Positions 56,301-59,300 of a stretch of 64,000 bases of DNA are shown in pieces (position 1 is the first letter of the stretch; each line of letters opens with the position of its first letter). Position numbers: made by a program. The DNA is from Escherichia coli (GTDB taxonomy: Bacteria > Pseudomonadota > Gammaproteobacteria > Enterobacterales > Enterobacteriaceae): the NCBI RefSeq assembly GCF_017348835.2, contig NZ_CP071375.1. One strand, written 5' to 3'.

Positions 56301-59300
56301 CTACCGCCTTAACAATAGCTGGAGTTTTGGTCTTGGTTTTGATGCTGTATACGCTAAGGCAAAAATTGAGCGTACTGCCGGTTCACTCGGTCCATTGCTT
56401 TCCCAACAACTGATAGCGCAAGGCGTGCCACAAAGTTGGACAAACGGCATCAATACACCGGATTCGCAAATTGCTCATCTCAAGGGTGATGAATGGGGAT
56501 TCGGCTGGAACGCCGGTATTCTTTATGAACTGGATAAAGATAACCGTTGGGGCCTAACCTATCGTTCAGAAGTGAAAATTGACTTTGAAGGAGATTACAA
56601 AAGCTCCATCAACCCAAATCTGAACAACATCTTGGGTAGCATGGGTTTACCATATGGCACAATGGGTGCAACCCAAAATGGGTCCTTAACGCTGAATTTA
56701 CCTGAGATGTGGGAAATTTCTGGCTATAACCGTGTCGCACCACAATGGGCTATCCACTATAGTCTGGCGTATACCAGTTGGAGTCAATTCCAGGAACTGA
56801 AAGCGAAAGGAGACTCTGGTCAAACGCTGTTCTATAAAGACGAAGGTTTCCGGGATGCTTACCGTATCGCGTTAGGTACAACCTACTACCACGATAAAAA
56901 CTGGACCTTCCGTACGGGTATTGCATTCGATGACAGCCCGGTTCCGGCAGATAAACGTTCTATCTCTATCCCAGATCAGGATCGTCTGTGGTTAAGTGCA
57001 GGTGCGACTTATGCATTTAATGAAGATGCATCCATTGACGTTGGTGCATCTTATATGCACGGTCAGAATGTGAAGTTTACTGAAGGTGAAGGGCCAGCAG
57101 CATATACCTTTAAATCTGAAGGTAAAGCCTGGCTGTTCGGTACTAACTTTAACTACGCGTTCTGATAACGCGTTCGCCTGGTTAAAGTCACCTGCTATGC
57201 AGGTGACTTTAACTTCCCCACTTCACCGAAAGTAGTGTCCTCATTGCTTGCCTCCTGAGTTTTGCAAACAGCCTGATGGTAGCTTGCCCTTTCAAATCAT
57301 TAAGTGGTATCCACAGACAAACCTGAAGGGAAAGGCATATTTTCAGGCGTTCTGCTCGTCTTTCTCAAAGAGTTTACTTTTCTGAATTTCCAGGATACTC
57401 AAACCACCCTGGCTATTGTGCGCTCATACACTCAAATTAAAGATAGGGTCTAAATAAATGAGCGTTTTTTGATAGTCTATTTCATTAGGTAATATATATT
57501 TGTAACAAATCAATCAACATGGAATAAAATCATGCTACCATCTATTTCAATCAACAATACCAGCACAGCTTACCCAGAATCCATCAATGAAAATAACAAT
57601 GATGAAGTTAATGGATTAGTACAAGAGTTCAAAAACCTTTTTAATGGTAAGGAAGGAATAAGCACCTGTATTAAACATCTACTTGAGCTTATAAAAAACG
57701 CCATACGAGGAAACGACGATCCTGATAGAATAAATATCAATAATTCTTCAGTTACTTATATTAATATTGGTTCCAATGATACAGACCATATTACTATTGG
57801 TATCGACAACCAAGAACCAATAAAATTACCTGCGAGTTATAAAGACAAAGAACTCGTCCGTACTATCATTAATGACAACATAGTTGAGAAGACTCATGAT
57901 GATATAAATAATGCTGAATTTACTGATGGTATTATTATTAGTGGTATTGATGATCGTAGTGATATTGGTATTGACTCCAATGATACAAACGATATTACTT
58001 TTGATATTGATATTGATATTGATATTGATATTGAAAATCAAGAACCAACAAAATCACCCGCGAACGATGAAAACAAAAAAGTCGGTCAAACCATCATCAA
58101 TGAAAACATAGTAGAGAATACTCATGATATCAATAACAAGAAAATGATCTTCAGCGCAATAAAAGAAATATATGATGAAAATCCAAGTTTTATCTTCGAT
58201 AAAATATCACACAAACTCAGACATACGGTAACGGAATTCGATGAGAGCGGGAAAAGCGAACCAACGTGCTTATTTACCTGGTACGGTAAAGATAAAAAAG
58301 GCGACTCTCTCGCTATTGTAATAAAAAATAAAAATGGAAATGATTACTTATCTCTCGGTTACTACGATCAGGATGGCTACCACATTCAAAAAGGATTTCG
58401 TATTGATGGTGATAATCTCACCCAATATTGTAGTAAAAAAGCCAGGAGTGCTTCTGCGTGGTTTGAACACAGTAAAGCAATCATCGCAGAATCATTTGCA
58501 ACAGGTCCCGATCATCAAGTTGTAAACGAACTCAAAGGGGAAAGACTGAGAGAACCTAACGAAGCTTTTAATCCTTCAAATCTAGCAAGAGGATATGAAT
58601 ATTAAGAGGATGATAGAAAATATACACTTAAGAATACAAAAGAAATAGTTTCTACTTTATTCGGTAACGAAGTTAACGTTGACCATTCTCAAAATATATA
58701 TATGCACTATAAGGAACTCGAAGGTAAAATTGAAGAAAGGCTTCAAAATCGCCAGACGGAATATCAAAATGAAATTAATCAACTATATGCGCCAGGTGTT
58801 AATTTTGATGATATTTAAAATTATTTTTCCAGTTTTTTGATTTTTCAACGCCTGAATATCGGAAATAGTCAGTGACGAACATCAGTATTTTTACATCATT
58901 ACGTCCGGGTCATTGTCGGTTTATCTCCTTTTACTTGTGGTAATTGAGGGATAACAACAAAAAAGGTGAGTTTTGCGACTCACCTTTTTTATTTGTTTCT
59001 TATTCAGAATCGATATCTTTTAAATCATCCTGAATCGCTTGCGCGTTCGGATTTTCCTGCGGTTTGAGTTCGCCGCCATTAGCGATGAAATCATGACGCT
59101 GGAAGTACGCTTCGCGCACCATAATATAAGGATCGGACGACTGACGCAGCAGACCGTCGGAATCCAGCAGCTGAGCGCGGGTTTCGATCCCTTCAAGCGT
59201 CCATTTACCCACAGACATCGGCCAGGTCAACCAGGAAAGAACCGGGTAAAGACCATCCGCCATATCACCACCGTCATCACGCAGCGTGAAGCTACCGTAG

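Follow-up and report, generated by a model that had tools for sequence, protein, structure and literature searches.

Gene content of the locus

The sequence analysed here, called the window throughout, is a 64,000-nucleotide stretch of the Escherichia coli contig NZ_CP071375.1. Our subject is its yfdF-like open reading frame (ORF) and the DNA that follows it. The ORF lies between fadL and mlaA within an AT-rich island, in the gene order fadL, yfdF-like ORF, mlaA, yfdC. Window bases 57400-59100 are 100% identical to those of strain PE164, a pig isolate, and in this identical strain RefSeq names the ORF product 'hypothetical protein' (WP_153645581.1). The features of the locus are the following.

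55819-57165, plus strand: fadL
57178-58955, no strand: accessory AT-rich island that holds yfdF and the remnant, drawn from composition and from the junctions relative to the yfdF-less strain 2014C-3338
57532-58605, plus strand: yfdF allele with a truncated frame of 357 codons that ends in a premature TAA, from alignment to full-length alleles
58570-58635, plus strand: hyperdivergent patch of 22 codons around the stop, collinear and without indels, about one third of its nucleotides differing
58603-58605, plus strand: premature TAA, CAA (Gln) in the intact alleles examined, with a C-to-T transition at 58603
58606-58815, plus strand: probable 3' coding remnant of yfdF, orphaned, the former last 70 codons, with gap-free homology to intact C-termini
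58702-58818, plus strand: 38-codon ATG-initiated ORF in the yfdF frame, its Met codon lying inside the remnant and probably due to a lineage-specific substitution
58816-58818, plus strand: probable ancestral yfdF stop TAA, common to all intact alleles and located 181 nt before the mlaA end in each
58959-58990, no strand: hairpin with a 14-bp stem between an A-run and a T-run
59000-59755, minus strand: mlaA, convergent with yfdF

The borders of the island, at about 57178 and about 58955, emerged from comparison with an island-less strain, and its G+C content of 0.29-0.38 differs from the 0.45-0.55 of the flanks. About 1,160 of 5,425-5,426 complete E. coli genomes are without the whole yfdF island and match at the mlaA end only. 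The hairpin at 58959-58990 is a bidirectional intrinsic terminator common to yfdF and the convergent mlaA, and it is kept in a yfdF-less strain (L006). Promoter-like sites were not enriched, with 9 found against 8.8 expected from shuffles. H-NS silences the AT-rich yfdF gene in both E. coli and Shigella, and in S. flexneri its activation proceeds through a MxiE box (PMC9769918).

The open frame after the yfdF stop

A preliminary description of this DNA had noted that the yfdF frame stays open for about 70 codons past the TAA at 58603-58605. The count is exactly 70 codons, up to a second TAA at 58816-58818. The description had drawn the open segment as 58606-58999; its open frame is real, but the final 181 nt of that range (58819-58999) belong to the genuine intergenic region, with the terminator hairpin inside.

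An open frame of 70 codons exceeds chance. At the local G+C content of 30.5%, the stop probability per codon is 0.088, and 70 consecutive codons would stay open with a probability of 0.0016; in-frame stops were absent from 0.14% of 100,000 shuffles of the tail, and the chance overall is about 0.0014-0.0036. These values bear on the view that the frame is open by accident in non-coding AT-rich DNA, or that the stop itself is a sequencing or assembly error. Such DNA does commonly contain short ORFs, and among the remaining five frames of the tail segment, which have 1-14 stops each, frame +1 has just one. Against an accident stand the probability just given and the homology of the segment to the coding sequence of intact alleles, and against an error the occurrence of the TAA in 348 independently assembled complete genomes. 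We regard the probability of this view as negligible; the alignments to full-length alleles and the sharing among 348 genomes have already refuted it.

The homology is in frame and collinear. No gap is needed to align the 70 tail codons with the C-terminal end of K-12 YfdF (b2345), to which 52/70 amino acids and 184/210 nucleotides are identical, or with that of a 423-amino-acid allele (55/70 amino acids, 189/210 nucleotides). When the window protein is read past its stop, it aligns collinearly with the long alleles from end to end. Such longer forms of yfdF occur in DETEC-P649 (423 aa) and in S1-ESP-03-A, 09A19CPO004B and ST2747 (415 aa), and their stop codons lie 181 nt before the mlaA end, precisely at the position of the second stop of the window. 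Homology to K-12 b2345 extends over the whole protein, and phmmer E-values reached 1e-271 when a long allele served as the query. The best 120 database proteins mostly measure 412-432 aa, and about 110 of the 120 end in ..GVNFDD(I/N/V/F). The window translation lacks the intact C-terminus ..GVNFDD(I/N/V) and ends 71 codons early.

These alignments bear out one of the two origins that had been proposed for the tail, namely a remnant of a longer ancestral yfdF: K-12 YfdF, at 352 aa, and the longer alleles, at 412-430 aa, all read through to 58816-58818. They also correct the assumption that 58603-58605 is the normal end of yfdF, since the K-12 reference protein includes the tail.

YfdF, for which PGAP uses the name 'protein YfdF', is an ORFan of E. 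coli and Shigella. Neither YfdF nor its tail had a Pfam or NCBIfam match near any curated cut-off, and a search of 1.84 billion representative proteins for relatives beyond E. coli and Shigella returned none, only fragments of the same family. In 100,044 species-representative genomes there was no match either to an exact 27-mer of the tail or to a degenerate pattern built on the invariant NGNDYLSLGYYDQD motif; the E. coli species representative is evidently without the island. AlphaFold2, run on full-length YfdF with a 20-sequence alignment, produced a low-confidence model (mean pLDDT 35, pTM 0.25), too poor for folds to be compared, in which the sole better-modelled part is the final helix, residues 381-415, located in the tail.

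The premature stop and its spread

At 58603-58605 the window has TAA where intact alleles have CAA, so that a single substitution replaces a sense codon by a stop. This is the nonsense change that the preliminary description had proposed to look for by comparing alleles. Among the 120 long database proteins, the residue at this site is Gln in 118 and His in one, and the motif could not be aligned in the one left.

We determined the frequencies of the variants in complete E. coli genomes with 55-nt queries that carried the variable base at their centre, so that no 28-nt megablast seed could avoid it. The TAA haplotype is present in 348 of 5,426 genomes (~6%), many of them O157:H7, and the K-12-type CAA in 2,766 of 5,426. 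The leftover genomes, about 1,150, carry other yfdF haplotypes outside the seed design. When the window flanks were combined with CAA in a synthetic 55-mer reverted from T to C, none of the 5,426 complete genomes matched. Similarly, a protein search with the conceptual read-through of the window yielded short fragments only and no intact allele bearing the window-type patch, and in a collection of 5.8 billion proteins all those retrieved with NPSNLARGY(E/Q)(Y/F) stop exactly there. The TAA is thus a genuine and fairly widespread allele, because the 28-mer across the T is common to 348 complete genomes, and it is always tied to a distinctive local haplotype.

Divergence around the stop and in the tail

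Around the stop lies the 22-codon patch, which reads NPSNLARGYEY*EDDRKYTLKN in the window (asterisk, stop) and KR(L/Y)GRAIRY(N/D)FQVD(D/N)AK(F/Y)RR(D/N)N in intact alleles. The differences are mostly non-synonymous: when truncated alleles are set against intact ones, the patch has a pN of 0.37 and a pS of 0.18, and the core a pN of 0.07 and a pS of 0.17. A variant of the S10 type (..GYQF*EDN..) is intermediate between the window-type and the intact forms of the patch. A small inversion or a frameshift as the origin of the patch was ruled out by the collinear alignment without indels.

We also computed pN/pS by the Nei-Gojobori method for 60 distal tail codons and a 142-codon core, with few substitutions and recombinant alleles in the comparison. 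In the core, pN/pS is 0.37 in truncated and intact alleles alike. In the distal tail it is 1.44 among truncated and 1.13 among intact alleles, both from small counts and recombinant alleles. The C-terminus of YfdF therefore evolves fast even where it is translated, and dN/dS, being near 1 in intact alleles too, cannot separate coding from non-coding evolution in the tail. Moreover, the alleles are mosaic: the distal tail of the window is nearer to the intact 423-aa allele than to O157:H7, and its core is nearest to O157:H7. Recombination therefore blurs any signal of decay.

A published list of E. coli genes with a positive-selection signal includes yfdF (PMC3882776), and the fast evolution of the YfdF C-terminus is consistent with that listing.

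The 38-codon ORF and the coding status of the tail

The tail contains an ATG-initiated ORF of 38 codons at 58702-58818, with the product MHYKELEGKIEERLQNRQTEYQNEINQLYAPGVNFDDI; its position and peptide agree with the preliminary description. We found no Shine-Dalgarno-like purine run or GGAG-like element in the 25 nt 5' of the ATG (CGTTGACCATTCTCAAAATATATAT), which upholds what had been said of the ribosome-binding site. The tail of the window has no in-frame ATG, GTG or TTG upstream of 58702.

The start codon is not conserved among carriers of the nonsense allele. Of 5,426 genomes, 7 have an ATG at 58702 within matching flanks, which makes 7 of the 348 with the nonsense allele. In the other TAA alleles the codon at this site is AAA (O157:H7) or AAG, and in intact alleles it is GTG, GAC or AAA.

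Nor is the frame of the ORF kept across strains separately from yfdF. A 1-nt deletion at about 58735, within the 38-codon ORF, shifts the frame in 36 of the 348 TAA genomes, and the three such genomes that we examined, DETEC-C31, 88COLEC and JX21CE8, combine it with another 1-nt deletion at the old stop. In the tails of intact alleles, a single indel was seen, of 6 nt and in frame. Frame-breaking lesions were seen in TAA alleles only, some of which carry them downstream of the premature stop. About 312 of the 348 TAA genomes are without the deletion at about 58735, the sole lesion that was counted.

The NCBI annotation pipeline (PGAP) records the homologous tail as a pseudogene in F2_81 and S10, with the remark 'incomplete; partial in the middle of a contig; missing N-terminus'. 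Over the segments that were compared, F2_81 does not differ from the window. In the literature that mentions yfdF, we found no Ribo-seq, mass spectrometry or tagging data on translation of the remnant.

These results weigh upon the idea, raised in the preliminary description, that the 38-codon ORF, or more of the tail than that, encodes a small protein independently, from its own start after the yfdF stop, as the product of a gene split. The tail frame is open and begins with an ATG in the window strain, no other part of the tail is as well conserved among alleles as the C-terminal motif RLQN.Q..YQNEINQL.A.GVNFDD, and this motif is predicted, with low confidence (pLDDT 54-62), to form one long helix. 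Yet the ATG is restricted to seven genomes and gives way to AAA or AAG in other TAA alleles, an alternative in-frame start upstream and a Shine-Dalgarno sequence are both absent, the ORF is frameshifted in 36 TAA genomes, and the existing annotation is that of a pseudogene fragment. The broken frame is the very result that had been named beforehand as refuting a preserved small protein. We consider a separate gene very unlikely.

Alternatively, the TAA might be read through or recoded, such that synthesis of full-length YfdF continues and selection acts on the tail as coding sequence. This would fit with a tail that stays open in most TAA genomes, as far as the one counted deletion tells, and with an upstream core that has the same pN/pS in truncated as in intact alleles. 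TAA is, however, the most efficient stop codon of E. coli. No readthrough signal is known for this stop, and none is visible here. A search of 57100-59300 against Rfam at permissive E-values also revealed no family at threshold; what scored below it was noise around the terminator hairpin. Furthermore, the frameshift in the tail is tolerated in 36 genomes, and the conserved basic motif that flanks the stop has been wholly remodelled in the TAA haplotype, which argues against use of the two parts as one protein. Readthrough is, in our judgement, highly improbable.

Origin of the tail and direction of change

yfdF is an accessory gene under weak constraint, and the window has an allele of it that a nonsense codon truncates. 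Very probably, yfdF once extended through 58606-58815, which was its 3' end until a C-to-T nonsense mutation cut it off. In the sequence of events that we propose, a C-to-T transition would have turned the Gln codon CAA at 58603-58605 into TAA, so that translation of the truncated allele would end at residue 357. The coding sequence beyond the new stop, as far as the old one at 58816-58818, would have become a tail, with the terminator downstream, and this remnant is presumably untranslated. Its frame may still be open because translation was lost recently in evolution and because recombination with intact alleles has refreshed the tail. The 38-codon ORF would be a by-product, in which an internal Lys or Val codon of the remnant changed to ATG in one lineage.

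We infer that CAA is the ancestral state and that the change was a loss; this polarity is inferred and not rooted, because a search for an outgroup found none. Four observations suggest the direction. A stop-to-sense change that happened to expose 70 open codons at 30% G+C would be an event of probability about 0.002; the long proteins, about 110 of 120, end alike at ..GVNFDD(I/N/V/F); the one indel seen in intact tails is in frame; and frame-breaking lesions were found in TAA alleles only.

A different view of the same mutation is that the nonsense allele is a maintained, functionally distinct short form of an H-NS-silenced and rapidly evolving ORFan that the Shigella MxiE regulon has co-opted. 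We think this very unlikely. If it did hold, selection would have remodelled or removed a basic C-terminal helical module, and the new ATG of the PE164 lineage might even permit separate synthesis of the terminal helix. The pN/pS of about 2 in the patch, the persistence of the allele in 348 genomes including O157:H7 and the core pN/pS of 0.37 are compatible with a short form of this kind.

For annotation, a nonsense-truncated yfdF means that the 'hypothetical protein' beside mlaA, in O157:H7 as in the window strain, is a YfdF cut short at its C-terminus, and that the sequence past it is best marked as a gene remnant and not as a new small ORF. The locus illustrates a common trap, in which an in-frame open stretch after a stop in AT-rich DNA mimics a small protein until a comparison of alleles resolves the case. 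Three classes of yfdF allele are potentially useful: full length, the K-12 type with its internal repeat deletion, and the C-terminally truncated type. Beyond annotation the significance is slight.

Comparison with known systems

The 38-codon ORF resembles bacterial small proteins (sORF products of fewer than 50 amino acids, identified by Ribo-seq) in size and location only, being an ATG-initiated ORF in apparently intergenic DNA. It differs from them in having no conserved start, no ribosome-binding site and no conservation of frame, and in having arisen inside a larger gene.

Features of the kind described here are already known, and two RefSeq genomes, F2_81 and S10, already list the same tail as a pseudogene fragment; both have TAA at the same codon and a patch as in the window. 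The truncated yfdF of O157:H7 (WP_000952959.1, 343 aa) also shares the TAA codon and the patch with the window. Its tail differs in 12 of 70 codons and has AAA in place of the ATG, and hence no 38-codon ATG ORF.

The long yfdF alleles (412-430 aa, annotated as 'hypothetical protein', for example WP_001551410.1 of DETEC-P649) align collinearly with the window from one end of the gene to the other, repeat region included, and their distal-tail DNA is 90% identical to it. They differ from the window in having no premature stop and in the patch near codon 358, a conserved basic motif KRYGRAIRYNFQVDNAKYRR for which the window has NPSNLARGYEY*EDDRKYTL.

K-12 YfdF (b2345, NP_416847.1, 352 aa) agrees with the window allele in its fadL-mlaA locus, its N-terminus, its core and its final stop, and its final 70 residues are the homologue of window 58606-58815. 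It differs in its intact C-terminus and in the CAA at the site of the window TAA. K-12 YfdF is shorter than the long alleles solely because about 77 internal residues are missing, deleted between two 113-nt direct repeats, both of which the window has. In the window allele the internal repeat region is still there, and it is the C-terminus that a nonsense codon has removed.

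A divergent patch spans the premature stop of yfdF

The premature stop of yfdF in the window (TAA, 58603-58605), which reads CAA (Gln) in intact alleles, lies within a short segment that sets truncated alleles, those carrying this TAA, apart from intact ones.

58570-58635: hyperdivergent patch of 22 codons spanning the premature stop, seen when truncated and intact yfdF alleles are compared

About one third of the nucleotides in this patch are unlike between the two allele types, without any indels, and each truncated/intact pair differs by 18.7 non-synonymous versus 2.3 synonymous changes. 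In the truncated alleles the patch stands in place of a conserved basic motif of the intact ones, KR(L/Y)GRAIRY(N/D)FQVD. A variant reading ..GYQF*EDN.. represents an intermediate form of the patch, and the window-type patch without the premature stop was found in none of the complete E. coli genomes searched. The patch may have been acquired from a diverged allele, or it may have arisen through diversifying selection or through decay.

The C-terminal 60 codons of the intact alleles (homologues of 58636-58815 in L003, L004, L005, L008 and L009, RefSeq records compared at this locus) display a pN/pS of about 1.1, as opposed to 0.37 in the YfdF core. A 2013 scan listed yfdF with a positive-selection signal among E. 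coli genes (PMC3882776).

Allele length and annotation

Truncated YfdF alleles comprise 343, 346 or 357 residues, and full-length ones 412-432. Allele length varies at a region containing two repeat features.

57788-57900 and 58016-58128: internal direct repeat in yfdF, 113 nt, 78% identity, copies 228 nt apart
58001-58034: (GATATT) microsatellite in yfdF, 5.7 copies, encoding (Asp-Ile)n

Some 77 residues between the two 113-nt repeats have been lost from the K-12 allele. Naming by PGAP at the locus is not uniform among the RefSeq records compared (L001-L016): only the 352-aa K-12-type allele is labelled 'protein YfdF', and both the longer intact and the truncated alleles are called 'hypothetical protein'. 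In RefSeq, the tail downstream of the premature stop is marked as a pseudogene fragment in some genomes (strains F2_81 and S10) and carries no annotation in others (PE164 and O157:H7).

The yfdF region is an accessory island

The whole yfdF region constitutes an island, with a hairpin just inside its fadL-side edge.

57178-58955: AT-rich accessory island, about 1.78 kb, lying between fadL stop and mlaA terminator
57185-57211: perfect hairpin, AAAGTCACCTGC TAT GCAGGTGACTTT, directly 3' of fadL, within the left edge of the island

Among 5,425 complete genomes of E. coli, about 1,160 are devoid of the island, and in these fadL and mlaA are just 61 nt apart. Searches with two patterns did not find it in 100,044 GTDB species-representative genomes. 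In the laboratory strain DL21 (NZ_CP079747.1), an IS1A element is inserted in the yfdF-mlaA stretch; the match to the window is broken up into three segments, and a transposase gene of IS1 lies between them.

The hairpin at 57185-57211 probably serves as the fadL terminator in island-bearing strains. In strains without the island, the mlaA-side hairpin region is the putative substitute for this terminator.
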